The notes under the pieces are model-generated. The model saw only the letters and a program-made list of their open reading frames with translations. It searched no databases and was not told the DNA's origin. Below are positions 48,031 through 64,000 of a stretch of 64,000 bases of DNA, piece after piece (within the stretch, counting starts at the first letter, position 1; the number at the start of each line of letters is the position of its first letter). The stretch lies in contig LBOM01000005.1 of assembly GCA_000989515.1 (NCBI GenBank), forward strand, positions 2,709 through 66,708, in the 5' to 3' direction. The position numbers and the translations under genes were made by a program. The stretch is from Candidatus Nomurabacteria bacterium GW2011_GWE1_32_28. Its GTDB lineage: Bacteria > Patescibacteriota > Minisyncoccia > Phycocordibacterales > UBA9973.

Positions 48031-51000
48031 GGTGATAGAATTGTTTCTGATATTAAATCATTGCTAAATAATTTAAAAGAAAATGATGAACAGGAAATAG
48101 GGGAGCCTTGTATTTCTCCACCAGAACTTTCTTTACTTCATAAAGTTCAGGGTGTTTTGTTTGCTGTAGCTGACCCGACTGCAGGAGTAGTGAAAGTCGG
48201 ATTAATTAGTTCTTATAATGCAGGTTCTTATATCGCTGATGGTGTGCATAATGCTGGATTAGCAGTAGGAAACGGGATACATGATACTAGCTTAAAAATA
48301 AATAATATGGTTTCAGGATTGTTGGCAAATGCTATTGGAAGTTTGCCTGATGCTGGTGTTATAGCTGCTGTTCCTTTTGGTGTATTAGATTCTGAAAATA
48401 TAGAAGCTGGGGCGGAGGAATTGCCTCCGCCTGCTTCGTCTGTAGAGAAAGAGACCGTCCTTCCACAAGAGATACCTGAGATAAAAGATGAAGTAACTAT
48501 TCCTACTGAACCTGAACCTATTTTAGTTGAGCCAGTTCCTGAAAAAGAAGAAGTTGTGGATGTTGTACCAGAGAAGATTGATCCTATCGTATCTAATACC
48601 ACATATTATGGTGGAGGTGGCGGAAGTAGTACACCTACAGATATAGTTGCTCCAGTTATTACAATTCTTGGAAATAATCCTGAGACAATTACAAAAGATT
48701 CTATTTATCTTGATGCAGGTGCGACAGCTTTGGACGATGTTGATGGTGTGATAGAAGTAGTTGTCACTGGTGTTGTGGATATTAGTGTCGTTGGTGTTTA
48801 TATTATTACTTATACTGCGACAGATCTTTCTAATAATATTGCGACAATGATACGTACTATCAACGTTGTTTTGCCTCCACCCCCACCACTTGCTACTTTT
48901 ACAATTGACTCTGATACTACATTAGTTGCTGGTGAATATAATTATGATAATTTAATTATTACAAATAATGCGGTACTTACCTTAGATAGCAATCGTGATT
49001 CACTAGACCCATTTAAGGGTGTAAAAATAAATGCAGTAAATATAACTATTGAAAATGGTTCATCTATTTCTGCTCAAAGTAAAGGATACGCGAATGGTCC
49101 AGGAACTTATGCAGAGAATAGTCCTGGTGCGAGTTATGGTGGAACAGGTGATAAAAATATTTCAACATCGATATATGGTAGTGCGACCAAGCCTATTGAT
49201 TTAGGTAGTGGGGGATATAATTATTTTCGTGATGGTGGAGCTATTCGTCTTGTCGTCACAGATACTCTCATAAATAATGGTATTGTTTCTTCGAATGGAG
49301 ATAGTACATCGAGTGGTGGAAGTATTTATGTAACAACAAAAAATTTGACTGGAAGTGGTTCATTTAGTGCAAATGGTGGAGGATTATACTCTACTTCCGT
49401 TATTCACGGTTCTGGTAGTGGAGGTAGAATTGCTATATATTATGAAGTTAATTCTTTTTCTGGAATAGTAGAAGCAAAAGGTGGATGTGGAAGTTATGAT
49501 GGATATTCTAGAACTTGTGCGATGGATGGAACAGTTGGATATTTTGATACAATAAATAATGATCTTTCTGTATATAATTCATGGCAATTTTTAAAAGTAG
49601 ATAGTCCATTTAATTATAATAAAATTATTTTAACAAATGGTTCGACAATAAGATCAGAAAAAGAAGTTAATATAACAGCAGACGATCTTCTTTTAGATAA
49701 GATTTCTAATTTTACATTAAACGAAGATCAGATTATAAATATTTCGTCAATTAGGTTAAATGAAAATTCTAGATTAACACTTTCTGGAAGTGAAATGATA
49801 ACTGCTGACAATTTAATTATTAGTGGCAATTCTGATGTCACTATAGTTATAGAGAAAATATTTTCTTTAACTATTCCGAACATTAATATTGAAAGTGGAT
49901 CTTCTATTTCAGCTGATACAAAAGGGTATTTTGGTGGTCCGGGTGCTCCTTTGGTATACAGGGCTGGTGCAAGCTATGGAGGAGCAGGCGAGGGAAGCGA
50001 TGATGCATTAACTTATGGTTCAGTTTTGGAACCTGTAGATTTTGGAAGTGGTGGAAATGGTGATCTACGTGGTGGTGGAGCTATTCGTCTTGTCGTCACA
50101 GATACTTTCATAAACAATGGTATTGTTTCTTCAAATGGAAACAGCACATCGAGTGGTGGAAGTATATATATAACAGTAAAGAATTTATCTGGAAGTGGAA
50201 AATTTAGTGCAAACGGAGGAGGGCTTTATTCTTCTTCTGTTATATTTGGTTCTGGTGGAGGTGGTAGAAATGCAATTTATTATGAGAGTAATCTTTTTAC
50301 TGGAACAGTGGAAGCAAAAGGTGGATGTGGAAGTTATGATGGATATTCTAGAGTCTGTGCAAAAGATGGAACAGTAAAAATGATTGATACTACAAAGAGT
50401 TCAGTAAAACAAATTACGACATTTGATTTTATGAGTTTGACACCAAACGTTGTTGGAATGATTGATGAAGTTAATCATGCTGTTTCTCTAACTGTTCCTT
50501 TTGGTACTGCTGTGACAGCTCTCGTCTCAACTATTACAATTTCAGAAAAAGCGATAATTAGTCCAGATACTAATGTAGCTCAAGATTTTACAAATGCTGT
50601 TACTTACACAGTGACTGCAGAGAATGGTTCTACTCAGGATTATATTGTCACAGTTTTGGTCGCTTCTGATCCAAATCCTCTACCTGATGATACGATACCT
50701 TCAATATTAAGCTCTTCATTAAATGGAATTGCTAGTGATGTGGCGACCAATCCTGTCGTAGACCTTGTTTCTATTGCTTTTATTGCAAATGAAAATGTAG
50801 ATTGGGTTTCTATAAAAATTGAGAAAGAAGACGATGAAACTGTTTACAAATATTTTTATCCAGGGATTGATTGTGATGGGCAGGATGCTTGTACTAAATC
50901 ATGGAATGGTTTATTAGCGGGAGATTCAATAGCACCAATCGGTGTATATAAGATAAGGGTTCGTATTCGAGATCTGATTAGCCTAGAAGAATATGATTTT

Positions 51001-51039
51001 TCCCATTTATATAAAATTACAGTAGATACTTCTCTATAA
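48031..51039 (+). CDS. Large beta-helix / Ig-like surface protein, possibly the continuation of 47392-48030 across the in-frame TAG
   Basis: It has no signal peptide of its own and no in-frame ATG near its start. A DUF5011-like Ig domain is present (APVITILGNNPETITKDSIYLDAGATALDDVDG...). Two long Gly/Ser-rich beta-helix repeats are nearly identical. Confidence 0.55.
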   Translation, partial: GDRIVSDIKSLLNNLKENDEQEIGEPCISPPELSLLHKVQGVLFAVADPTAGVVKVGLISSYNAGSYIADGVHNAGLAVGNGIHDTSLKINNMVSGLLANAIGSLPDAGVIAAVPFGVLDSENIEAGAEELPPPASSVEKETVLPQEIPEIKDEVTIPTEPEPILVEPVPEKEEVVDVVPEKIDPIVSNTTYYGGGGGSSTPTDIVAPVITILGNNPETITKDSIYLDAGATALDDVDGVIEVVVTGVVDISVVGVYIITYTATDLSNNIATMIRTINVVLPPPPPLATFTIDSDTTLVAGEYNYDNLIITNNAVLTLDSNRDSLDPFKGVKINAVNITIENGSSISAQSKGYANGPGTYAENSPGASYGGTGDKNISTSIYGSATKPIDLGSGGYNYFRDGGAIRLVVTDTLINNGIVSSNGDSTSSGGSIYVTTKNLTGSGSFSANGGGLYSTSVIHGSGSGGRIAIYYEVNSFSGIVEAKGGCGSYDGYSRTCAMDGTVGYFDTINNDLSVYNSWQFLKVDSPFNYNKIILTNGSTIRSEKEVNITADDLLLDKISNFTLNEDQIINISSIRLNENSRLTLSGSEMITADNLIISGNSDVTIVIEKIFSLTIPNINIESGSSISADTKGYFGGPGAPLVYRAGASYGGAGEGSDDALTYGSVLEPVDFGSGGNGDLRGGGAIRLVVTDTFINNGIVSSNGNSTSSGGSIYITVKNLSGSGKFSANGGGLYSSSVIFGSGGGGRNAIYYESNLFTGTVEAKGGCGSYDGYSRVCAKDGTVKMIDTTKSSVKQITTFDFMSLTPNVVGMIDEVNHAVSLTVPFGTAVTALVSTITISEKAIISPDTNVAQDFTNAVTYTVTAENGSTQDYIVTVLVASDPNPLPDDTIPSILSSSLNGIASDVATNPVVDLVSIAFIANENVDWVSIKIEKEDDETVYKYFYPGIDCDGQDACTKSWNGLLAGDSIAPIGVYKIRVRIRDLISLEEYDFSHLYKITVDTSL

Positions 51040-51160
51040 TTTTCCACAAGTTCAACTTGTGGGGGAAGGGGGAGATTGAGTTGTTTGAAGGTTGTTATTA
51101 TTATTAGGAGTAGTATTATTAGTAAGGAATAATTCTTTAACAAATCTTAGAGGTATTGTT

Positions 51161-51370
51161 ATGGAACAAAATTGTTGTGTTGCTTATTTGGGTCAATGTG
51201 ACTTTAAAATTCTTTCTCGTATAGACGGTCATTATAAAGAATTTTTTTATGTTTGTATGAACTGTGGAAGAGAAAAGATTTTAGATAGAATTTCTCTTAA
51301 TCATAAAAATCATAAGTATTCAGAAGGAGATCAAATAAAAATGGAAGAGCTATCTTTACAGGGCAAGTAG
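51161..51370 (+). CDS. Small Cys-rich (zinc-ribbon-like) protein
   Basis: MEQNCCVAYLGQC...CMNCG. The hairpin CAAGTAGATTATT...AATAATCTACTTG plus a T-run follows. Confidence 0.45.
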   Translation: MEQNCCVAYLGQCDFKILSRIDGHYKEFFYVCMNCGREKILDRISLNHKNHKYSEGDQIKMEELSLQGK

Positions 51371-51420
51371 ATTATTTATAAATAATCTACTTGCCTCTTT
51401 TTTTATGTTATAATAAAATT

Positions 51421-51564
51421 ATGGTGAAACATTTTTTAAAGACTTTATCTATTTTTATTTTTATGATAATTTTAGGACTCATAGGAGTTTATCTAGTAGG
51501 TTATTTTGATAATAATGAAGAATCAGCTAATGTTTTAAATAATCAAGCGGAAGTAGCAATATAA
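51421..51564 (+). CDS. 47-aa single-pass membrane peptide (hypothetical, not in the ORF track)
   Basis: ATG..TAA ORF MVKHFLKTLSIFIFMIILGLIGVYLVGYFDNNEESANVLNNQAEVAI. Confidence 0.3.
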   Translation: MVKHFLKTLSIFIFMIILGLIGVYLVGYFDNNEESANVLNNQAEVAI

Positions 51565-51599
51565 GGATATAAAATATATTGCTTTAGTTTAAAAGTTGT

Positions 51600-51802
51600 G
51601 ATATTATACAAATACCGCAAAGAAAATAGGCGTAATCAATTAACAATTAAGAATTACGAGTTAACAATTTGAAATTCGTAATTAAAAATTCGTAATTGAA
51701 TGTAAGTCCTATTTAGTGGGTCGATATTTGCCAAACAGGCGAAAAAGATTTGCGGCGAAAGCCGTTTTTTTTGTTTTTAAAAAATAAAAAGGTAATAAAA
51801 TT
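51600..51802 (+). promoter_or_regulatory. Structured leader upstream of rplJ (candidate L10-leader-type autoregulatory attenuator)
   Basis: Paired heptamer arrays (51631-51701) and the GC hairpin GCGGCGAAAGCCG plus T8 (about 51752-51775) lie just before the rplJ start. Confidence 0.35.
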
Positions 51803-52282
51803 ATGTTACAAAAATCAAAAAAAGAAGAAATAATAAAGAGTCTTGAAAAAGCAATCAAAGAATCTTTATCTGTTGTATTTGTTAATTTTCATGGTATGAA
51901 CGTTGGCGATGAGACTGTTCTTCGTAGAGAACTTAGAGACAAAGGAGTAGATTATAAAGTATCTAGAAAAACTTTATTAAAGAGAGCATTGACCAAAAAA
52001 GCAGAAGGGGATATTCCTGAGCTTTCAGGCGAAGTTGCTATAGCATATTCAAAAGATGAAGTTGCTTCTTCTCGTGAAATTTATAATTTTCAAAAAACCC
52101 ATAAAGGTGTCTTGAATATTTTAGGTGGAATTTTTGAAGGTAAATTTATAGGCAAGGAAAGAATGATGGAGATAGCTGTAATACCTTCTAGAGAGGTACT
52201 TCTCTCCAAAATTGCATTTTTGCTTAAATCTCCAATACAACGTTTGGCTATTACAGTCAATGAAGTTGCAAAAAAGAAATAA
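51803..52282 (+). CDS. rplJ: Ribosomal protein L10
   Basis: The pattern VVFVNFHGMNVGDETVLRRELRDKGVDYKVSRKTL and its position upstream of rplL. Confidence 0.9.
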   Translation: MLQKSKKEEIIKSLEKAIKESLSVVFVNFHGMNVGDETVLRRELRDKGVDYKVSRKTLLKRALTKKAEGDIPELSGEVAIAYSKDEVASSREIYNFQKTHKGVLNILGGIFEGKFIGKERMMEIAVIPSREVLLSKIAFLLKSPIQRLAITVNEVAKKK

Positions 52283-52304
52283 TTATTAAATAATAAAAAA
52301 TATT

Positions 52305-52673
52305 ATGTCAAAATTTGATTCATTTATGAAAGACCTTGAGAGCGCATCAGTTTTAGAATTGAATGATCTCGTAAAGGCAATAGAAGAAAAGTTTGGAGTT
52401 TCCGCCGCCGCTGTCGCAGCTGCCGGTCCTGCTGCAGGTGCTGCAGAAGCCGCTGAAGAAAAAGATTCATTTACATTAGTACTTACATCTGCTGGTGAAC
52501 AAAAAATAGCTATCATGAAAGTTGTAAAAGAAGTTTTGAGTCTTGGACTTAAAGAGGCTAAAGATCTAGTCGATGCTGTCCCTTCTACATTAAAAGAAGG
52601 TATGAAGAAAGCTGAAGCTGATGAACTTAAGAAAAAGATTGAAGAAGCAGGTGGAAAAGTAGAATTAAAATAA
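52305..52673 (+). CDS. rplL: Ribosomal protein L7/L12
   Basis: An Ala-rich hinge ([19 protein letters not shown]) and the C-terminal [19 protein letters not shown]... Confidence 0.95.
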
Positions 52674-52681
52674 TAGAAGAA

Positions 52682-52754
52682 AGAGCGAATACAAAAGTTT
52701 TCTGGCGGACAAAAGAACAAAGTGCCCGCAGGCGAAAACTTTTGTATTCGCTCT
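52682..52754 (+). terminator. Long-stem terminator after rplL
   Basis: Perfect 21-bp stem AGAGCGAATACAAAAGTTTTC / GAAAACTTTTGTATTCGCTCT with a 31-nt loop, followed by a T-run. Confidence 0.7.
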
Positions 52755-52794
52755 TTTTTATTGTTTTTTATAAAAAGGGTGGTATTATATATAT

Positions 52795-53376
52795 ATGGAA
52801 ATTCTGGGAAAAATATTAGGGAGTGGAGCTCGGGTAAAAATAATGCGTCTTTTTTTGTTGAATTCTAAGAGTGGATTTAGTAAAAAAGATATAGTAAAAA
52901 GAAGTCGTGTAAGTTCTAGTATCGCAGGTAAAGAAATAAAACTTTTATCTTCTTTGGATTTTATTAAAAAACATAATATAAATTGGTTTTTTAATCCACT
53001 TTTTAAATACGGGAAAGAATTTGAGAGACTTTTAATAGGGTCTGAGACATTAGACAACAAGATAATTGCTGATACTTTTAAAAAAGTTGGACGAGTAAAA
53101 CTTCTATTAGTTTCTGGTATTTTTATTAAAAATAAAGACACTAGAATTGATCTTCTCATTGTTGGAGATAAAATGAAAAAAAATAAAATTGAAGAAGGGA
53201 TACATAAGTTAGAAGCTGAAATAGGTACTGAACTCGTTTATGCTATTTTTGATACAAAAGAGTTTATATATAGATTAAATATGTATGATAAACTCGTACG
53301 GGACATACTTGATTTTCCTCACAAGATTATTTTTCAAGCTAAAGAGTTATCCACACAAGCTTTAAAAAAATCCTAA
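52795..53376 (+). CDS. Hypothetical protein with an N-terminal wHTH-like region
   Basis: 193-aa ORF. ARVKIMRLFLLNSKSGFSKKDIVKRSRVSSSIAGKEIKLL resembles a wHTH. Confidence 0.5.
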   Translation: MEILGKILGSGARVKIMRLFLLNSKSGFSKKDIVKRSRVSSSIAGKEIKLLSSLDFIKKHNINWFFNPLFKYGKEFERLLIGSETLDNKIIADTFKKVGRVKLLLVSGIFIKNKDTRIDLLIVGDKMKKNKIEEGIHKLEAEIGTELVYAIFDTKEFIYRLNMYDKLVRDILDFPHKIIFQAKELSTQALKKS

Positions 53377-53485
53377 AAATTGTTATAATAAAATATAGAA
53401 CTTTACAAGGTCGAAACTTTATAAGTTTTTATTAGTTAATTTTTTAGCTTAATGCTGATCCGTTTTTAGCGGAAATTATAAATTT

Positions 53486-54181
53486 ATGAGTAATATTTGG
53501 ATGACATGGGGTGATGTTTTTAATGTTTCATTGCAAAGTTTGTGGTGGGCTTTTATTCAATTTGCTCCAAGACTTATTTTAGCGATTATTTTATTTGTTG
53601 TTGGTTGGGTATTGGGTTCTCTTGTTGCTAAAGCATTTGAACAAGTTTTTGGTACTTTAAAAATTGATAATATTTTTAAATCTATTGGTGTAGATGATTT
53701 TTTTAGAAAGGCAGGAATGAATCTTAATTCTGGTCATTTCGTTGGAGAAGTAATGAAATGGTTTATAATTATTATTTTCTTGCTCCCTTCACTTAATTTG
53801 ATTGGGTTGGATTCAATTGCATATTTCTTAAAAGATGATGTGCTTGGATTTTTGCCTAAGGTTATAATTGCTGCTTTTGTATTAATAATTGCGACAATCT
53901 TGGCAGAATTTCTTTCAAAAACAGCTTATGCTTCAGCTCGTGCAATGAATCTTAAATCTGCACATATGTTGAGTTCACTTGTAAAATATACAGTTTGGGC
54001 CTTTGCATTTATTATTGCATTAGGTCAGCTTGGAGTAGCAGAAGGGTATATGAATACTCTTTTCGCTGGAATAGTTGGAATGCTTGCTCTTGGTGGTGCT
54101 CTTGCTTTTGGCTTGGGTGCTAAAGATGCAGCAGGAAGATTGATTTCAAAACTTGGAGAAGAAATGTCTCACAAAGAATAA
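53486..54181 (+). CDS. Membrane protein with conserved-TM-helix repeats (small mechanosensitive-channel-like)
   Basis: 231 aa with 4-5 hydrophobic spans. The family call is by pattern only. Confidence 0.45.
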   Translation: MSNIWMTWGDVFNVSLQSLWWAFIQFAPRLILAIILFVVGWVLGSLVAKAFEQVFGTLKIDNIFKSIGVDDFFRKAGMNLNSGHFVGEVMKWFIIIIFLLPSLNLIGLDSIAYFLKDDVLGFLPKVIIAAFVLIIATILAEFLSKTAYASARAMNLKSAHMLSSLVKYTVWAFAFIIALGQLGVAEGYMNTLFAGIVGMLALGGALAFGLGAKDAAGRLISKLGEEMSHKE

Positions 54182-55082
54182 TAAATACTTTATAGAAATA
54201 GAAAAAAGATGTCCACACTTTCCCCATTGGGGCTTAGGTTGACATCTTTTTTCGTTTAATATATACTCTTTCAATCAGTATGATTACATTAAGAAACAAG
54301 TTTAAAAGGCGGTTTTAAGCAGACTTTCTTTTGTCTGTTGACCGCTTAAAAAGCGGTTTTTTATTTGGTAAGTATGGCTTGAAAATTGACAACTTAAATC
54401 CTATCCTAGTATTCTTGGACAACTTGCAAAAGTGTGTCCGGCATGCAGCCTGTATGCTTAGGGTCTTTTCAAAGCTAGAGATAGGAAATTGTTTAAATAA
54501 TTTTGAATGCCGAGCGGTCGGACTAGATTTTATTATAAGCATTGTTTTATCCTTATGTAATGTAAGGATTGTGATTTATAAATTTCTTAACAGGAAATTT
54601 AAGGGCGTATGGTGGATGCCTTGACTTTAAGAGGCGATGAAGGACGTGGCGTTGCTGCGATAAGCTTCGGGGAGGTGCTTAGCTACCTTTGATCCGGAGA
54701 TTTCCGAATGGGGAAACCCTATCAAGTAAACCTTGATAACTTTTATCTTTATGATAAAAGAGCATACCCTGGGAAGTGAAACATCTCAGTACCAGGAGGA
54801 ATAGAGACAAATATGTATTTCCTTAGTAGCGGCGAGCGAAAAGGAAGAAGCCCAAACCGTTCTCGCAAGAGGGCGGGGTTGTAAGATGACAATGTAGTTT
54901 ACTAGGAGAGTTAAAAAATAAATTATTAGTTGAAGTTGCTGGAAAGCGACACCGTAGGGGGTGATAGTCCCGTAAACGAAAATAATTTATCTCTTTTATT
55001 GTTATTCTTGAGTACCCCAGGACATGAATGGCCGGGGGGAATCTAGCGGAACTAACCGCTAAGGCTAAATACTCTTAAAGAT

Positions 55083-55119
<37 letters not shown>

Positions 55120-56332
55120 CAGCCCGATTAGGGCGGTGAAATAGACCTGAAACCATATGTCTACAAGGAGTCGGAGCAGGTATTTATATCTGCAACGGCG
55201 TGCCTATTGAAGAATGAGCCAACGAGTTTATTCATACTGCAAGGCTAAGCTGGCTAAAACAGCAGAGCCGAAGGGAAACCGAGTGTTAATAGCGCGAATG
55301 AGTAGTATGCATAAGACCCGAAGCCAGGTGAGCTTGCCATGAGCAGGTTGAAGTTTGTCGAAAGACAAATGGAGGACCGAACCGGTAGATCGTACAACGT
55401 CTTCGGATGACTTGTGGTAAGGAGTGAAAAGCTAATCGAACCTGGTAATAGCTGGTTCTCTCCGAAATAGCTTTAGGGCTAGCGTCACTGGAAGGTTTCG
55501 ACAGGGAGCAATCTCGCGAAACCTATCAAACTCCGAATACCAGAAACCATAGCTTGGCAGTTAGGCCATGGGGGCGAAGCTCCATTGGCCAAAAGGGAAA
55601 CAGCCCAGATCTCAAAATAAGGTCCCTAAATTTATGCTAAGTGTAAGATAAGAAGGTGGAATTTCTCTGACAATGAGGAGGTTGGCTTAGAAGCAGCCAT
55701 CCTTTAAAGATAGCGTAACAGCTCACTCATCTAGAGATTTTGCGTCGACATAGTACCGAATTTGAGGATTTCGTTTTTCTTCGGAAGAACGGAGTGGTAG
55801 GAGAGTGTTCCAATCTGCTGTGAAGTAGGACTCGTGAGAGCCTATGGAGCGTTTGGAAGTAAGAATGTTGGCACAAGTAACCGCAATGAGGGTGAGATCC
55901 CCTCACGTCGAAAGATCAAGGTTTCCTTGGTAATGTCAATCAGCCAAGGGTTAGTCGGGCCTAAGGGAATGGAGAAATCCGTACTCGATGGACATAGGGT
56001 TAATATTCCCTGACTTCTGTATTTTGTGATGGGACGACGGAGTGTAGTATGTATTGCTCATTATTGGATTTGAAGTTTGTTTACTAAAGATGAGGTGTAG
56101 GAAAATCCGCACACTGCTTTCAATGGCAAATCTAAGGTAAATGAAAAGTCTTAAGCCTCGGTTTAGGACAATAATACAAAGCACGCTTCCAAGAAAAATC
56201 TCTAAACTTAAAAATATAGAATCCGTACCGCAAACCGACACAGGTGATCAGGTCGAGTAGACCAAGACGAACGAGTGAGTGGTCCCCAAGGAACTCGGCA
56301 AAAAAGCAGCCGTAACTTCGGGATAAGGCTTG

Positions 56333-56486
56333 CCCCCACCACTTTGGATATTTCTAAATATTTGAGAGTGTTGGGAGAGTAAGATTTAAGTATCGAGCAA
56401 AAAGAGACAATGAGGAATTAAATTAAAGCTCTTCATCATTTTTTATTTCACAGAATTTTTTTGTGAAGTATCTAAAGTGGTGGGGG
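56333..56486 (+). other. AT-rich expansion / intervening-sequence-like insertion in the helix-63 region of the 23S
   Basis: A closing stem CCCCCACCACTTT / AAAGTGGTGGGGG encloses about 128 nt of AT-rich sequence, where E. coli has a much shorter helix. Confidence 0.6.
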
Positions 56487-56640
56487 CCGCAGCGAAAGTT
56501 TCTCTGGCAACTGTTTACCAAAAACACAGCTCCCTGCGAACTCGTAAGAGGATGTATAGGGGGTGACACCTGACCAATGCCAGAAGGTCAAATATCGGCG
56601 GTGTATGTCGCAAGATGTATGCAGACTGATATAAGCCCTG

Positions 56641-56683
<43 letters not shown>

Positions 56684-57301
56684 ACCTTGTCGGGTAAGTT
56701 CCGACGCGCACGAATGGTGTAATGACTGGAGAACTGTCTCGGGGACCAGCTCGGTGAAAATACAATGCCGGTGAAGATGCCGGCTAAGTGCAGTTAGACG
56801 AAAAGACCCTAGAAGCTTTACTATAACTTGATATTGAGCATGTTTTTAAACTGCGTAGAATAGATGGGAGAGGTTTGAAGTGTACGGTTTCGGCTGTATT
56901 CTACTCGTCAGTGAAATACCATTCTTTTTGAAGGCATGTTCTAACCAATACGGCAAAAACGTATTGAGACAGTATCTGGTGGATAGTTTTACTGGGGCTG
57001 TACCCTCCTAAAAAGTAAAGGAGGGGTTTAAAGGTTAGCTAGGCGCGAATGGAAACCGTGCCGATAGTGTAATGGCACAAGCTAGCTTGACTGTAAGAGG
57101 TACATCTCAAGCAGGTGGGAAACCAGAACATAGTGATCCGACCATACGCATTAGACGCGGTGGAAGCTCAACGGATAAAAGCTACTCTAGGGATAACAGG
57201 CTAGTTCCGCCTAAGAGTTCATATCGACGGCGGAGTTCGGCACCTCGATGTCGGCTCACCTTAGCGCGGCGGTGGAGAAGCTGCCAAGCGTTTCAGACCG
57301 T

Positions 57302-57643
57302 TCTTCAGTCAATTATTAAATTGACTTCAGAACAGTCTGGATCCTCAGAGGAATAGTGAACGAAAGTGAACTACTGTTTTAATCGAAATTAACCATATTG
57401 CTGTTTGCAATATCACGGCGGTCGCGTTAAATTTATATTAACAAATCACGCGATGAAGTCGGGGTTTTCGGTGGAATCCTATCACATTTATGTGAGGACA
57501 ATACCGAGAAGAAAATTTATTTTTTCTTTGTAGAGACTACAAACCGACCCCCTTAAATTGGGGAATGTATAGTCCAATCCCATAAGTAATTATGGAAATT
57601 GCTAAAGCCTAAGGCCTAATGCCTAAAGCCTAGCATGTAGATG
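57302..57643 (+). mobile_element. ORF-less group-I-like intron at the position equivalent to E. coli 23S U2593 (boundaries provisional)
   Basis: The 3' flank resumes exactly at CGTGAGACAG. The 5' flank ends in U and the insert ends in G. A core can be drawn: GTCGG/CCGAC, TTCGGTG/TACCGAG, GACTAC/GTATAGTC, CCCC/GGGG, and an S-like AATGTATAGTCC at 57564-57575. Confidence 0.55.
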
Positions 57644-57706
57644 CGTGAGACAGGTTGGTCTCCTATCTACTGCACTCGTTGATTCTTGAGAAGATTTGCT
57701 CCTAGT

Positions 57707-58526
57707 AGGCCCGGAAGGGCTTTGCTACTTCACGAAGAAATTTGTGATGAAAAAGTGGCTAATAACGGTGAAGTCTTCATTGATGTTTCTGATTTGAGAA
57801 AAATAATATCATTCGATCCTTGATATTATGATTCGCTTGAGGACCAGAAATATGATAAGATAATACCGTGGGAAGTCGATTTAAAATTATGAAAGAAATT
57901 GAGAAAGCTTATATTGCTGGTTTTCTTGATGGAGATGGTAGTCTAATGCTTCAAATTAAAAAAAGAAGTGATAGTAAACGAGGAATTCGTTTTATGACAA
58001 CCATTTGTTTCTATCAAGACACTAGACATGAAAAGACTTTATATTGGATGAAAAAGATTTTAGGTATTGGTTATATTTCCAGAAGAAATGATGGAATGAC
58101 TGAACTTAGAATAAATGGATATGTGCAGATTGCAAAAATTCTTAAAGATTTATTGCCTTTTGTAAAATTCAAAAAAATACAAGCTAATATTTTATACAAA
58201 GCTTGTAATCTTTTATCTAAAACAAAGTTTAGTAATCTCTCGGAAAAACAATTAATTAAGCTCGTTGATTTAATTTTAGTTATTCAAGGTGAAAACTATG
58301 TTACTAAAAAGAAAAAAACCAAAAATGAATTGTTTAAAATTTTAAATTTGACCCCGTAACGACTTGTTTCCGACTTTATGTCGGAACGGACTTACATAAC
58401 ACTGGAAAGTTCTAATATATTTAATATATGAGAACAGGTTTATGTTTGTAATACGCCAACGCCTTAACTTTAATTAAAGAAAGGCGAAGATATAGTCTGC
58501 ACTCCTAGAAATAGGGGAGATATGTG
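57707..58526 (+). mobile_element. Group I intron inserted inside the sarcin-ricin loop of the 23S, carrying a LAGLIDADG homing-endonuclease gene
   Basis: GCTCCTAGT|...|ACGAGAGGACCGGAGTG. The 5' exon ends in U and the insert ends in G. The conserved J8/7-P7 element AAGATATAGTC lies at 58487-58497. Confidence 0.8.
57889..58359 (+). CDS. LAGLIDADG homing endonuclease (single-motif, I-CreI-like)
   Basis: MKEIEKAYIAGFLDGDGSLMLQIKK..., 156 aa from the ATG at 57889, located inside the intron. Confidence 0.9.
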   Translation: MKEIEKAYIAGFLDGDGSLMLQIKKRSDSKRGIRFMTTICFYQDTRHEKTLYWMKKILGIGYISRRNDGMTELRINGYVQIAKILKDLLPFVKFKKIQANILYKACNLLSKTKFSNLSEKQLIKLVDLILVIQGENYVTKKKKTKNELFKILNLTP

Positions 58527-58793
58527 ACGAGAGGACCGGAGTGAACTGACCTCTGGTGTACGAGCTCTATTGCCAAATGGACTGCTCGGTAGCTATGTCG
58601 GGATTGGATAACCTCTGAAAGCATCTAAGAGGGAAGCCAGCTTCAAGATTAGGAATCGTTAAGAACCGTGAGAGATGATCACGTTGATAGGCTTTAAGTG
58701 TAAGCGAGAAGTACTAATGTTTCGATTCCTGTTAAGAAATTTGTAAATCACAATTAAAAAAATAAAAAAATTCATATTAATATTCATTATTAT

Positions 58794-58902
<109 letters not shown>

Positions 58903-59036
58903 ATAGTAATGAATTTTTTTATTTAAATTTGTCGCAGGATGCCCCGTCTTACAGGCACAGTACACCTTTTGGATTTTTTCATTCACGTTGTTCTGAAAAA
59001 TTCTCAAAAGCTCTTGCACTTGGGTCCCAAACCAAA

Positions 59037-59119
<83 letters not shown>

Positions 59120-59143
59120 CACTGAGTATTTGATTCTTTTAAA

Positions 59144-59167
59144 AACCTAATAAATTAATATTAGGTT
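59144..59167 (+). terminator. Terminator 1 after the rRNA locus
   Basis: AACCTAATA-AATTAA-TATTAGGTT followed by a T-run. Confidence 0.7.
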
Positions 59168-59198
59168 TTTTATATATTTATTTGTTTAAAAAATAAAA

Positions 59199-59216
59199 CC
59201 CTTGAATATTCAAGGG
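59199..59216 (+). terminator. Terminator 2 after the rRNA locus
   Basis: CCCTTGAATATTCAAGGG followed by a T-run. Confidence 0.7.
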
Positions 59217-59361
59217 TTTTTTGGGTTTTTAAAAGAGTTAAAAAAAAGATATTACTTACAATACATCATGCAATGGCTTTGGCCATTTGTTGCTGTTTTG
59301 CATTAATTATCAAATTTTTCAATTTGATTAATTCAGTCTTTTGACTGTTGATTCCAAGATT

Positions 59362-59436
59362 TTAAAGAACAATTTTGAAGCTTCTCGAATTTAAATTTAA
59401 GGGTGATGAATGGTTGCGAACCATCAGTGTTTCCAT
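59362..59436 (-). CDS. Possible 24-aa micro-ORF with a strong Shine-Dalgarno sequence (speculative)
   Basis: On the minus strand, GGAGGT then 4 nt then ATG. The product is METLMVRNHSSPLNLNSRSFKIVL. There is no other support. Confidence 0.2.
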   Translation of the reverse strand: METLMVRNHSSPLNLNSRSFKIVL

Positions 59437-59625
59437 GCTAACCTCCAAATTAATTGATCATCTTTGAATTTATCTTTCCCTAAGAATTTAGGGGGAATAT
59501 ATCTTAAGAACAAACTAGATTCATATAAATGATACATCAAATTTTAGATTAATCAATAGGAAATGTGGAAAAACACAAAAGAAAGGATTTTATAGAAAAC
59601 GCTGTTTTATATATTATTTTGATAC

Positions 59626-59654
59626 TTGACATATTCATTTTTAACTTGTAGTAT
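59626..59654 (+). promoter_or_regulatory. Near-consensus sigma70-type promoter for the 59720-62713 operon
   Basis: TTGACA (59626-59631), a 17-nt spacer, then TAGTAT (59649-59654). The leader has a GCCAAAATATTTTTGGC hairpin, and AAGGAGG precedes the ATG. Confidence 0.5.
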
Positions 59655-59719
59655 CAAATTAAGTATGTGCGCCAAAATATTTTTGGCTTTGATAACTTAA
59701 TAAAAGGAGGTACCACGTT

Positions 59720-59989
59720 ATGGCTACAGAAAGATCAGTAGTTGAAGTCAAAGCACGGTGTAAACCACTCTTAGGTCAATTACCACTAGTTGAGTTTGTT
59801 CAACAAAGTGGTAGTCCTACAGCTGCTTATACTATTATTTTTTCTGAAACTAATAGTAAAGAATTAGCAAAGGCGGGACGATGGCTTGCTGTTTTAAAGC
59901 GAGACTTTCCGCAAGAGTATAATTCTGTCATTTTTTCACTTAAATTAAGCCATGCTAATGAAGCAAGGTTAAAAGGAGAATCATCATGA
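59720..59989 (+). CDS. 89-aa protein of unknown function, first gene of the aaRS/rSAM operon
   Basis: AAGGAGG lies 7 nt upstream. Its stop overlaps the next start (ATGA at 59986-59989). No motif was recognised. Confidence 0.6.
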   Translation: MATERSVVEVKARCKPLLGQLPLVEFVQQSGSPTAAYTIIFSETNSKELAKAGRWLAVLKRDFPQEYNSVIFSLKLSHANEARLKGESS

Positions 59990-61305
59990 AAACTGTTTCT
60001 GCAAATCAACATCTCAATGTCCATGCTTGTTCTTTAAATGAATACGATAGACAAAAAATAACCATAAGCGGAGCGATTTACAGAATTCGCAAGTTAGGAG
60101 GAGGGTTATTTTTTATCGTTATTCGCGACGGAGAATCTTTGATTCAATGTAAACTTGAATCAAACGAGAGTATAATTTCTATAGAAGAATATTCTGAAGG
60201 AGATTATGTTTCTATTACGGGTATTTGTCAAAAAGAAAATCGTGCTCCACATGGAGCTGAAATTAAAGTTCAAAGTATAGAAATTTTATCAAAATCAACA
60301 GAAGAGATGCCTTTTTCTATAAATCAAAAGCTCTTTGAAGTTGGTCTAGATAGTAATCTTAACTTTCGTCCAATTAGTTTACGACATCCAAAACAGCGTG
60401 CAATTTTTGCTATTCAATCAGCAATTTCAATGCTTTTCAGGCAGGGATTAAGCTTGATTGATTTTACAGAAATTCACACTCCAAAATTAGTTTTTGCTGG
60501 CGCCGAAGGTGGAGCCAATGTATTCAAGGTAAAATACTTTGAAAGAGAACTTTTTTTGGCCCAATCACCTCAGTTTTATAAACAAATGATGGTTGGAGTT
60601 TTTGGTAAGGTAATGGAGGTGGGTCCAGTATTTAGAGCGGAACCACATGAAACTTCTCGACACCTAAATGAATATACTTCAATGGATCTCGAGGTAGGAC
60701 CAATCAAAAGTTTCGAAGATATAATGGAAATTGAAACTTATCTTCTTAGATATATTTTTGAAGAACTTCCAAAATTCTGTTCAGCAGAATTAAAATTATT
60801 AGAGGTTTCCATGCCACAGATTAATAATATTCCTATTATTAAAATGTCTGAAGCATTGGAAATCATTAGTAAAAATCGTAAAATAAAAGATAGGAGTGAT
60901 CTTGATCCTCAAGGAGAACAGATTATTTGCCAATACATTTTTAAAGAAACTGGTAGCGAATTTGTTTTTGTTACTCACTATCCGACAATTAAACGTCCTG
61001 TATATGCAATGGAAGATCCTGAAAATAATGAAGTTACATTAAGCTTTGATCTACTTTTTCGTGGATTAGAAATCACGACTGGAGGGCAAAGAATCCATGA
61101 CTACAAGATGCAAGTTGAAAAAATGAAACGTCTTGGTTATAATCCAGATGATTTTGTATCTTATCTTCAAATCCATAAATATGGTATGCCACCTCACGGT
61201 GGATTTGGTTTGGGTTTAGAGAGACTAACAATGCAACTTCTTAATCTTTCAAGTATTAAAGAAGCTTGTCTATTTCCAAGAACTATAAATAGGATAACAC
61301 CATGA
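59986..61305 (+). CDS. aspS: Class IIb aminoacyl-tRNA synthetase, archaeal/eukaryal-type aspartyl-tRNA synthetase homolog (full length, with the OB anticodon-binding domain)
   Basis: OB domain ISGAIYRIRKLGGGLFFIVIRDG, QSPQFYKQ, motif 2 VFRAEPHETSRHLNEYTSMDLE, GGQRIHDY, and motif 3 PPHGGFGLGLERL...FPRTINRITP. Confidence 0.85.
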   Translation: MKTVSANQHLNVHACSLNEYDRQKITISGAIYRIRKLGGGLFFIVIRDGESLIQCKLESNESIISIEEYSEGDYVSITGICQKENRAPHGAEIKVQSIEILSKSTEEMPFSINQKLFEVGLDSNLNFRPISLRHPKQRAIFAIQSAISMLFRQGLSLIDFTEIHTPKLVFAGAEGGANVFKVKYFERELFLAQSPQFYKQMMVGVFGKVMEVGPVFRAEPHETSRHLNEYTSMDLEVGPIKSFEDIMEIETYLLRYIFEELPKFCSAELKLLEVSMPQINNIPIIKMSEALEIISKNRKIKDRSDLDPQGEQIICQYIFKETGSEFVFVTHYPTIKRPVYAMEDPENNEVTLSFDLLFRGLEITTGGQRIHDYKMQVEKMKRLGYNPDDFVSYLQIHKYGMPPHGGFGLGLERLTMQLLNLSSIKEACLFPRTINRITP

Positions 61306-62603
61306 AAAACTCAGAATATAAAACAAGGCTTTTCCATGGTTTGCCTGCAGTTTTTTGCAATAACCATTGGGTAGTAATATCTCCTTACGCTGGAGAACTG
61401 GTTCGTATTGATGATGATAAATTTGATAGTCAGGAAACAAAAATAGAGCTAGAAAAGAAAGGATTCTTTGGACATCCATCAGAAAAAGGACCTGGTGCTT
61501 TAAGTGATTACCTTCAGTTGACCTTAATTACAAACAGTGATTGCAATTTAAAATGTAGTTATTGTTTTGCTAACGCTGGAGAAACTAAGATTGTTATGGA
61601 AGAGAATGTGGCTTTTGCTGCGGTTCGTTATTCTGTTAAAAAAGCAAAAAGCAGAGATTTATTAATTTCATTCTTTGGTGGTGAACCTTCTTTAACCCAG
61701 TCATTGATTAAAAAAGTTGTTGCTTATGCAAAGCAATCAATAATCGGTACTGAAGTTAAAAAAGTACGTTTTAATATTACCACTAATGGAGTAATGAGTA
61801 AGTCTTTCTTAAACTTTTTAATTGATAATGATTTTTTTCTTACAATTTCAATGGATGGATTACCTATTGTTCAAAACCATCAAAGACCACTAAGATATCC
61901 ATCAAAAGGAAGCTTTGACTCTTCTCCAATTTTGGAAAGAACAGTTAAAACGTTAGTTGCTAAAAAGCATGAATTTATGATCAGAGCTACAGTTACTGAT
62001 TTTTCTGTAAAATATCTTGTGCAAACAATTCAGTATTTAGATAATCTTGGAGTGACTCAATTTCACTGTGAAGTTATAAATCTTGCTGGTAGAGCCATAA
62101 TTAAAACTAAAGGACAACCAATGAAACGTCCGGCAGTAGATGATTTTATAGAAAATCTTAAAGCTTCTATCTTAGAAGCTGGTAAACTAGGAATGGGAAT
62201 TTTAAACTCATCTTACATGAATCTTCTTCAACCATCAGTGCATTTCTGTGATGGTGTGGGAGGAAATAGAATTTCTGTTTCTTATACCGGTGAAGTAACT
62301 ACTTGTCTTGAAGTACAAGGTGGTTGTCATCCAACAGCTGATAATTTTATTATCGGTGCTTATAATAAAGAAACAGGTGATATAGATATTAGTTCTTTAA
62401 AGCAGCTAAAAATTTGCAGTAATCCAATTACTAGTCAAAATTCTTGCTGTAAGGATTGTTTCGCTATTTACATTTGTGGTGGCGGATGTCCAATTCGTAA
62501 CTATCACATGACAGGTGATCAAAATAAAGTAGATCTTTTTCGTTGTCAGGTTATTAAATCAATTTTACCATTTATCTTTGATCTTTTTGACCAAAGCAGT
62601 TAA
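61302..62603 (+). CDS. Radical SAM enzyme with a C-terminal SPASM domain (peptide-maturase-like)
   Basis: CNLKCSYC (CX3CX2C), GGEPSL and the SPASM motif CKDCFAIYICGGGC (CX2CX5CX3C). An extension of about 80 aa precedes the cluster. Its start overlaps the aspS-like stop (ATGA). Confidence 0.85.
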   Translation: MKNSEYKTRLFHGLPAVFCNNHWVVISPYAGELVRIDDDKFDSQETKIELEKKGFFGHPSEKGPGALSDYLQLTLITNSDCNLKCSYCFANAGETKIVMEENVAFAAVRYSVKKAKSRDLLISFFGGEPSLTQSLIKKVVAYAKQSIIGTEVKKVRFNITTNGVMSKSFLNFLIDNDFFLTISMDGLPIVQNHQRPLRYPSKGSFDSSPILERTVKTLVAKKHEFMIRATVTDFSVKYLVQTIQYLDNLGVTQFHCEVINLAGRAIIKTKGQPMKRPAVDDFIENLKASILEAGKLGMGILNSSYMNLLQPSVHFCDGVGGNRISVSYTGEVTTCLEVQGGCHPTADNFIIGAYNKETGDIDISSLKQLKICSNPITSQNSCCKDCFAIYICGGGCPIRNYHMTGDQNKVDLFRCQVIKSILPFIFDLFDQSS

Positions 62604-62638
62604 ATAGATTAAAATGAATAAGAAGGAGGTGATAAAAG

Positions 62639-62713
62639 ATGAAGACTTATAAACTTATAATTCCAAAAGGAATTATCGTTAAACAAGGTCGCGTTGCTTC
62701 TTGTGACGATTAA
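62639..62713 (+). CDS. Unannotated 24-aa peptide, the candidate precursor or substrate peptide
   Basis: AAGGAGG, then 7 nt, then ATG. The product is MKTYKLIIPKGIIVKQGRVASCDD. It lies 35 nt after the rSAM stop and directly before the terminator. Confidence 0.45.
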   Translation: MKTYKLIIPKGIIVKQGRVASCDD

Positions 62714-62741
62714 ATTCAAGCCAGTTATTCTGGCACATCAA

Positions 62742-62769
62742 GGGATAGAAAAATTAATTTTTCTATCCC
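62742..62769 (+). terminator. Operon terminator
   Basis: GGGATAGAAAAA-TTAA-TTTTTCTATCCC followed by TTTTATT. Confidence 0.75.
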
Positions 62770-62841
62770 TTTTATTATTTTACATCATTGTAAATTTATT
62801 TTAATAATTGTAATATAAATGAGTTCCCTAGTTAAATATTT

Positions 62842-63243
62842 ATGTATAAAAAAGAACAAGAAATAGAAATTAAAAACTTATCACTTTTACCTAAGAATAT
62901 TTTTCATTTAGTTCCTGAAGAACTATTTAATAAGTTTATTAATAAAAATGGTGATTATGATTGTAGATATAAAAAAGTATGGGGAAATAATTCTCCTTTT
63001 ATACATACTACACCCACAAAAAAGCAATTAAAAAAAAGAGTCGCTGATGTTAATTGGTCAAAATATCCAATAAAAAAGAATTTTTTATTATTAAAAATAG
63101 ACACAAGAAAAATTAACAGCAAGGTGACCTATTCAATCTTTGAAAATAATATTTACCACCACATCTGGGGAAAATTACTAAAAGAATCTTTTCAGATAAT
63201 AGATGTCGTTCGTGACAAAAATGGTAAATTTTTATTTTTATAA
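62842..63243 (+). CDS. DUF952-like small protein
   Basis: The pattern SPFIHTTPTKKQL...LLLLKID...YHHIWGKL resembles DUF952 (FIH...Q...LLxID...PHxYG). Confidence 0.5.
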   Translation: MYKKEQEIEIKNLSLLPKNIFHLVPEELFNKFINKNGDYDCRYKKVWGNNSPFIHTTPTKKQLKKRVADVNWSKYPIKKNFLLLKIDTRKINSKVTYSIFENNIYHHIWGKLLKESFQIIDVVRDKNGKFLFL

Positions 63244-63342
63244 GTTTTTTAAGACGATAAGTAGTTTTGTGTAAATATTATTTTGTAATTTATTAAATAA
63301 AAAGAGTATTCACTACATTGAAGTTGTAAATACTCTTTTGGA

Positions 63343-64000
63343 TTAAAATTTAAAAAATGTTTTAGCATTTTTATAAAAAACTTTCTCTTTTATTCTTTCT
63401 CTCTCTGGAGCTGTAAATGTATTTATGGCTGATCTAATAGCATTCATTGATAACCAATGAGAATGTATTACCCCACTAGCTAAATGAGAATATAAACGAT
63501 GATTTTCTTCGTCAACCCAGTGGTATAAATATTCTGTAATAAGCCATTGACCTTTTTTAGGATGTATAAATACTTGAGACCTAATAAGATATAATGGTTC
63601 ATCACTACCAAACATTATTCTATCTTCACCAAATATATCTAGTGCTAGTTTAACTATTTCTGGAGACGGATTAAGGGCGGTATCTAAAAAAATATTTTCA
63701 TACGTTGTAAACTCTTTAAAGACACTTTTGAGTTGAGGAATCAAAACTTTTAAAGATCCGAGGTGTGCAATTGAAATTTTCAAGTTTGGAAAATCTTTTA
63801 AAACTTGTTTTAAGTCTCCCTTACTTTCGGTTATAATTTTTGGTAAATGAAGAATAATTGGAATACCAAGTGTTTGAGCTTCTTCTAATATTTTTGGTTT
63901 GAAAAACTCATAGATTTTTGTAGCTGTAGGTTCTACATAAGAGTAATACATTTTCAAAGCTGAAACTCTTGGATTACTTAACATTGATATTGTATATTCT
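63343..64000 (-). CDS. Amidohydrolase-2 / TIM-barrel metal-dependent hydrolase. The N-terminus lies outside the window.
   Basis: The frame stays open upstream of the ATG at 63984 to the window edge. ILHLP...IAHLG...MFGSDEP is typical of the ACMSD-like amidohydrolase family. Confidence 0.6.
   Translation of the reverse strand, partial: EYTISMLSNPRVSALKMYYSYVEPTATKIYEFFKPKILEEAQTLGIPIILHLPKIITESKGDLKQVLKDFPNLKISIAHLGSLKVLIPQLKSVFKEFTTYENIFLDTALNPSPEIVKLALDIFGEDRIMFGSDEPLYLIRSQVFIHPKKGQWLITEYLYHWVDEENHRLYSHLASGVIHSHWLSMNAIRSAINTFTAPERERIKEKVFYKNAKTFFKF

Follow-up and report, generated by a model that had tools for sequence, protein, structure and literature searches.

The 23S rRNA gene in the analysed stretch of DNA (64,000 nucleotides, hereafter the window) lacks four short internal segments, one of which is a 37-nt piece carrying the A-loop. 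These losses are very probably a defect of the sequence record (arising in assembly, curation or processing), and the organism itself would have canonical helices 90–93 and one 342-nt group I intron after U2593. Had the A-loop truly been lost or moved, the case would have been extraordinary; here, though, its absence appears to be a defect of one sequence copy, and the biological weight of the case is small, as the anomaly that prompted interest would not be a real feature of the organism. In practical terms, the 23S sequence of this record, with its four internal losses, is unfit as it stands for work on rRNA structure or phylogeny.

The 23S rRNA gene and its missing segments

The 23S rRNA gene (54589..58725, plus strand; identified by Rfam LSU_rRNA_bacteria matches and blastn against the E. 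coli 23S) is accompanied by a 5S gene at 58796–58901 (Rfam); the exons, introns and intron elements described below lie on the same strand. The window has a G+C content of 32%, and its proteins were found on groundwater metagenome contigs (ENA ANAN16-1 scaffold_12, NCBI GCA_000989365.1 and others). The nearest 23S gene in the genome collection belongs to a 'Candidatus Saccharibacteria' MAG (L004). The AT-rich host is accordingly assigned to the CPR/Patescibacteria type, a group known for insertions in its rRNA genes (PMC11270868). The exon blocks are colinear with the E. coli gene (blastn, Rfam), with sequence added at ~56330–56506, 57302–57643 and 57707–58526. The first of these additions contains an expansion at about 56336–56483 (blastn against the E. 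coli 23S), i.e. ~148 nt more than in L004 in the region of E. coli 1700–1766. Folding closes it into a single extended stem (−62 kcal/mol, z = −6.3), and by this predicted structure it resembles not so much an intron as an expansion segment or an intervening sequence of the RNase III type.

Several features of the surroundings were also recorded. No 16S gene stands ahead of the 23S–5S pair, whose upstream neighbours are rplJ-rplL and two other genes. A second copy of 5S, at 59019–59121, diverges at its 5' end and reaches 37 bits, where the gathering score is 38; it shares 93% identity over 102 nt with the true 5S gene and is considered real because the sister assembly L002 (ANAN16-1 scaffold_12) carries it too. 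No tRNA genes were found by ARAGORN in the whole 64 kb.

Within the window, helix 91 (...GCTGCCAAGCGT, ending at 57291) is joined directly to TTCAGACCGT (57292–57301); neither the A-loop nor the 3' strand of helix 90 follows it, and the exon restarts only at 57644. The first-pass annotation, made from the letters of the window alone, had counted 43 nt between GGCTCA and the splice site and had seen a helix-91-like hairpin there. Both observations hold, since GGCTCA lies at 57253–57258 and the splice site at 57301|57302, the equivalent distance in E. coli being 80 nt, and the hairpin is present. Its report that the A-loop and the helix-90 3' strand could not be found colinearly is also true of the window: the in-silico spliced sequence aligns with the E. 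coli 23S with a single 37-nt gap, which corresponds to E. coli 2547–2583. The 10 nt that follow the gap, U2584–U2593 (57292..57301, the helix-93 5' strand, ending in U), are the last of the 5' exon according to the alignment with E. coli, and they are identical in 14/14 homologous loci.

Neither a canonical A-loop nor the GAGCTGGGTT segment was found anywhere in the 64-kb window. When at most 2 mismatches were allowed, GGCTGTTCGCC matched at 3 unrelated places in the 64 kb (2.35 are expected by chance); GAGCTGGGTTYAGAMCGT, with at most 3 mismatches, had no match. The idea that the A-loop or the GAGCUGGGUU segment is encoded elsewhere, as in a fragmented or scrambled rRNA, was rejected, there being nothing above chance in the whole window. 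The region 57412–57470 (AGUCGGGGUUUU...) was considered as the site of the missing helix-90 3' strand and was likewise discarded; no helix-93 5' strand stands next to it, and the segment is P3/P4 of the intron.

Other assemblies of the locus were retrieved by looking up the window's own proteins. The 37-nt segment ATGGCTGTTCGCCATTTAAAAAGGTACGCGAGCTGGG, which comprises helix 92 (the A-loop) and the helix-90 3' strand (E. coli 2547–2583), is absent from the window only; in five further public assemblies, from this organism or one nearly identical to it, the segment lies exactly between 57291 and 57292. These are: ANAN16-1 scaffold_12 (L002/L026), LBOG01000007.1 (L003), the MEGAHIT contig ERZ27254733 (L027), a 95%-identical relative (L028) and ERZ909592 (L030), the last of which matches the window at 100% identity on both sides of the missing segment (377 and 1414 nt). 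A chimeric Logan contig (L029) has a variant canonical segment, TTGGCTGTTCGCCAATTAAAAAGGTACGCGAGCTGGG, at 57291|57292. An assembly problem, one of four explanations offered at first pass, is therefore the one favoured, as the 37 nt are present in five other assemblies.

With the 37 nt restored, the alignment to E. coli is free of gaps and helices 90–93 are canonical. The restored AAGGU pairs with the window's lineage-specific helix-90 5' strand ACCUU (AUCAC/GUGGU in E. coli), and so the missing piece belongs to this very gene. The Rfam LSU model recovers helices 90, 91 and 92 without non-canonical pairs on L002 7060–7349 (208 bits), while on the window helix 90 is broken and the score drops to 95 bits over a shorter stretch. 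The covariance-model check proposed beforehand thus gave intact helices 90–93 and a single clean intron on this sister assembly. Every distinct homologous locus with enough upstream sequence (14/14) shares this architecture: the A-loop lies 11 nt past helix 91, the exon ends 42 nt past helix 91 and a single intron of 297–428 nt follows. In every homologue the exon upstream of the intron is canonical, i.e. it has the A-loop, the helix-90 strand and then GGGTTCAGACCGT.

Three further segments of the 23S gene are present in the other assemblies and absent from the window only: 24 nt at 55485..55486 (CAAGTGTTTTTTCTGGGGGTAGAG), 17 nt at 55748..55749 (AAATAATTGGGGCTAAG) and 18 nt at 58705..58706 (ACAGTAATGTGTTGAGCT). 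Positions 1–51145 of the window are 100.000% identical to scaffold_12, and all 10 differences in 50082–64000 (6 substitutions and 4 losses) fall within the 23S gene, the other flanks being without a difference. There are thus four clean losses in one 4.1-kb gene and none in ~60 kb of flanking sequence, and none of the four junctions is present in any of the five other assemblies, which makes a defect of the record in the rRNA region the most economical reading.

It is very improbable, by comparison, that the four losses are real and that the 23S gene here is decaying and without function in some strain or subpopulation. The clean junction and the flanks, which are otherwise perfect copies of those in sister assemblies, are compatible with such a strain. 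Loss of the A-loop (G2553) and of G2581–G2583 would, however, remove parts of the peptidyl-transferase centre, yet Rfam reveals no second 23S gene within the 64 kb. Moreover, the gene has no other sign of decay, its 6 substitutions being those of the intact copies L003 and L030, and four independent losses would have to have accumulated in it against 0 differences in 51 kb of flank, with junctions that recur in 0/5 other assemblies. As regards the origin of the presumed record defect, no direct repeats or microhomology (as slippage or k-mer collapse would suggest) were found at the borders of the four losses, and the lack of flanking repeats is atypical of de Bruijn-graph collapse. The possibility that the losses are the longest exact matches to E. 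coli was ruled out, since the window keeps GGCACCTCGATGTCGGCTCA, a 20-nt stretch that matches E. coli exactly.

The intron after U2593

Judged by its sequence, the insert at 57302..57643 (342 nt) is a single clean group I intron, predicted to be self-splicing. Its boundaries are unambiguous, as both E. coli and 14 homologues place the last exon base at U57301 and the last intron base, the omega-G, at G57643; no ORF is present within the intron. The first-pass annotation had placed an intron with a group I core after the U2593 equivalent, and the boundaries together with covarying helices P2–P9 in the homologues bear this out. Its two exon observations were also correct: the exon restarts at 57644 with CGTGAGACAGGTTGG, and the alignment reveals a compensatory helix-93 pairing, GACC/GGUU here and GAAC/GUUC in E. 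coli. The position after U2593 is the classical I-CreI-type site. Of the 14 homologues, L004 is a genome contig and the other 13 are distinct contigs from metagenomes; their inserts measure 297–428 nt and sit at the same point.

The core helices P3–P8 occur in canonical order, including the P3/P7 pseudoknot, and are supported by covariation. The P2 hairpin (57422..57453, TCGCG ... CGCGA) precedes them and has a different, yet self-complementary, sequence in every homologue. P3 (57458..57548) is formed by GTCGG (57458–57462) and CCGAC (57544–57548), and five different complementary strand pairs are found among the homologues (GUCGG/CCGAC, (G)CUAAC/GUUAG(C), GCUGAC/GUCAGC, GUUAAC/GUUAAC and CUUGC/GCAAG). 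P4 (57468–57472/57503–57507), P5 (57477–57479/57496–57498) and P6 (57508–57529) covary. P7 consists of the 5' strand GAGACTA (57533–57539), which is enclosed by P3, and the 3' strand TAGTCC (57570–57575). It contains the guanosine-site sequence AGACUA/UAGUC with a bulged A (G33-A34-G35-A36-C37-U38-A39 with UAGUCC), invariant save for one covarying pair, in which A-U is replaced by G-C in 5 sequences; this guanosine site presumably resembles that of the Tetrahymena P7. P8 (57549–57563) has compensatory changes in 5/5 pairs and is followed by J8/7 (57564–57569). The R and S elements of the core are GUAGAGACUA (57530–57539) and AUAGUCC (57569–57575), respectively. P9 (57580–57595) has a GUAA loop and compensatory changes in 4/6 pairs.

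A lineage-specific extension of P9 with GCCTAA-type repeats (57596–57635) is missing from L004, L008, L019 and L022. It holds a repeat module of ~27 nt (AGCCTAAGGCCTAATGCCTAAAGCCTA, 57606–57632) that occurs once in the window. The GCCTAA-type module lies in the P9 extension here and in three homologues (L012, L014 and L017) and inside P8 of L022 (379–404), a distribution that suggests a small mobile unit passing from one peripheral loop to another.

Covariation was quantified in the 14-sequence alignment with RNAalifold and a pair count covering the exon–intron hairpin (described below), P4, P5, P6, P7, P8 and P9. Altogether, the 43 pairs considered were paired in 96.3% of cases and 23 of them had a compensatory change; with the pairs slid along the alignment only 30–44% were paired, and 0/500 shuffles reached the observed values. 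P3 was scored separately, by a per-sequence search, as the MAFFT alignment places its 5' strand inconsistently.

The Rfam group I model RF00028 gave no match to this intron at E ≤ 10, either within 1.6 kb or in 355 nt alone, while it does match the neighbouring intron at 2656 (27 bits). This absence is read as a limit of the model's sensitivity and not as exclusion from group I. The only Rfam matches to the intron alone (SAM-II, mir-1286 and PK-BYV) were dismissed as noise (E > 1). The missing RF00028 match, together with the stable long hairpin that folding predicts at the 5' end, could also be taken to mean that the insert is an RNase III-type intervening sequence, cut at that hairpin to give a fragmented 23S rRNA, and such sequences are known at other sites of CPR 23S genes (PMC11270868). 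This is, nevertheless, highly improbable, because the hairpin accounts for 46 of the 342 nt and is partly exon, and the rest is a covarying P2–P9 core that includes the P3/P7 pseudoknot, together with a guide sequence and a G at the end. With the insert regarded as a group I intron, an ORF-less intron family at a known CPR site escapes RF00028, and the number of group I introns among CPR rRNA insertions is therefore probably underestimated by censuses that rely on Rfam.

Guide sequence and hairpins of the 5' region

Immediately 5' of P2 is a putative internal guide sequence, UCACG followed by GCGG (57413..57421), which does not vary among the homologues. The 3' exon begins with CGUGA, to which UCACG is complementary, as in P10; the 5' exon ends with CCGU, to which GCGG is complementary with a U2593–G57418 wobble, as in P1. 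Guide sequences of group I introns are canonically arranged in this way. The role assigned to CACGGCGG (57414–57421) is one that we infer from its invariance, position and exon complementarity, since the invariant exons allow no covariation. The catalytic P1, as assigned, would have only 4–5 bp and would involve a guide ~113 nt away from the splice site.

The 5' splice site itself lies within a second structure. The first-pass annotation had noted a near-palindrome over this site, which is indeed present (57294..57339) and can now be identified as an exon–intron hairpin, with arms at 57294–57314 and 57319–57339 and the loop ATTA. The hairpin is conserved in the 14 homologues, with compensatory changes in its intron part, and is predicted by folding of L002. 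At the cleavage position there is a U-A pair, not U-G, and the hairpin is therefore more likely to be an anchor for the exon, or an alternative fold, than the catalytic P1. Its intron arm overlaps a 13-nt element, ACAGTCTGGATCC (57332..57344; consensus ACAGTYTGAACCC, ACAGUYUGAACCC), present in 14/14 distinct homologues and complementary to the last 13 exon nucleotides, GGGTTCAGACCGT (G2581–U2593), with 11–12 of the 13 positions pairing in the 14 homologues. This element probably anchors the 5' exon or temporarily sequesters it. In a separate observation, the Rfam LSU model placed CAGAACAGUCUGGAUCCUCAGAGGA of the intron (57326–57350) on positions 2603–2651 of the 3' exon (compare 57650–57670 of the window); in part, the exon-binding element imitates the 3' strand of helix 93 and the sequence after it.

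Between these elements is the hairpin ATATTGC-TGTTT-GCAATAT (57395..57413), which had been described as A-loop-like. Its stem covaries and its loop is not conserved: the homologues have different loops (UUAAAU, UGUG, UAA and others), and the hairpin is missing in 4/14 of them (L010, L013, L020 and L021). The 11-nt A-loop consensus is matched with 3 mismatches, and even at 2 mismatches chance yields ~2 matches per window; the likeness is coincidental. ATTGCTGTTTGCAAT and ATCACGGCGGTCGCG do lie at 57397–57426, as had been noted, but the idea that ATTGCTGTTTGCAAT/CACGGCGGTCGCG represent the A-loop and the strand of helix 90 out of place finds no support, the hairpin being a helix of the intron.

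These data also bear on the proposals that the locus holds nested or adjacent introns (a twintron-like arrangement), or scrambled exons, with the A-loop and the helix-90 strand at 57397–57426 put in place by unusual splicing. The resemblance of ATTGCTGTTTGCAAT to an A-loop hairpin, and a loose one of CACGGCGGTCGCG to the segment that comes after the A-loop, speak for them. The homologues, however, keep the true A-loop in the upstream exon and have unrelated loops, or none, at the position of the hairpin; on inspection of the sequence, the 5' strand of helix 90 in the window offers no partner for GGCGG, and no GAGCUGGG comes after the hairpin. There is, in addition, a single set of group I core helices (P2–P9), the homologues have colinear exons and one insert, and CACGGCGG is complementary to both exon ends, as expected of a guide sequence. 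Both nested insertions and a misread exon order have, in consequence, next to no probability.

The following course of splicing may be proposed for the single group I intron. The guide UCACG|GCGG would pair with the end of the 5' exon and the start of the 3' exon, the P3–P9 core with its AGACUA/UAGUC guanosine site would perform the two transesterifications (the intron ends in G), and the 13-nt element would pair with G2581–U2593 to give the long hairpin over the 5' splice site. It is conceivable, though we regard it as doubtful, that small L2593 introns of the kind invisible to Rfam hold their 5' exon in an unusual manner, with the 13-nt element on G2581–U2593 and the true guide ~70–190 nt downstream, the two acting as a switch between a sequestering hairpin and a short P1 or the former as a second exon anchor. 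The pairing to G2581–U2593 covers the peptidyl-transferase nucleotides G2583–U2585 and, if the proposal is true, this way of holding the 5' exon could link splicing with the assembly of ribosomes in CPR bacteria.

Neighbouring introns and known systems

The green-algal chloroplast Cr.LSU intron, which encodes I-CreI, presumably shares the U2593 site, a short P5 and a short P2 with the intron described here and has a LAGLIDADG gene and P7.1/P7.2. Group I introns at position 2593 have been published both for CPR bacteria (PMC11270868) and for cyanobacteria (PMC1995217). The cyanobacterial L2593 introns (Synechococcus C1/C9 and Thermosynechococcus; Haugen et al. 2007, PMC1995217) are likewise similar in site, short P5 and short P2. 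They are, in contrast, ~745 nt long, with a LAGLIDADG gene and P7.1/P7.2 (PMC1995217), whereas the intron here has 342 nt and no ORF, lacks P7.1/7.2, since P3' abuts P8 directly, and has ~113 nt with two or three hairpins between the splice site and the guide.

In the census of CPR rRNA genes, 2593 and 2657 are among the recurrent insertion sites (PMC11270868). The site 23IS12 (Tsurumaki et al. 2024, PMC11270868) is comparable with the present case in host group, in the 2593 position and in the clustering of introns round the peptidyl-transferase centre. The intron here differs from the 23IS12 entries of the census in having no endonuclease gene and in being missed by the Rfam model that the census used, and because of the latter it would probably count there as an unclassified insertion.

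A second intron is located close downstream. The two introns are separated by a 63-nt exon, C2594–U2656 (57644..57706), which is 100% identical to that of L004, a relative without the intron that follows it here. This intron (57707–58526, 820 nt, of group I; RF00028 matches its 3' part with 27 bits) lies after U2656 in the sarcin-ricin loop (CCUAGU|ACGAGAGG) and contains a LAGLIDADG_1 gene (57889–58359). Its site, 2656/2657, is also listed by Tsurumaki et al. 2024, where 2657 is given as a CPR insertion site and said to be unreported in other bacteria (PMC11270868). L004 (reverse strand) has in turn an extra insert of ~208 nt at TAAGGT|AGCGAA, an L1931-type site, equivalent to 56675|56676 of the window, which is without it. 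With the 208-nt insert present and the 2656 intron absent in L004, the intron content of 23S genes differs between relatives that are 87% identical.

Two closely spaced group I introns in domain V/VI have also been described in the 23S gene of Coxiella burnetii (Raghavan et al. 2007, as far as it is reported in PMC11270868). According to that account, the exon between them has 34 bp, against 63 nt here (57644–57706), the introns occupy sites other than those found here (L1917/L1951) and the exons are complete (PMC11270868), as are those of the present gene once the 37 nt are restored. By its sequence, the small L2593 intron, which has neither an ORF nor P7.1/7.2, joins the group I introns already described at position 2593.
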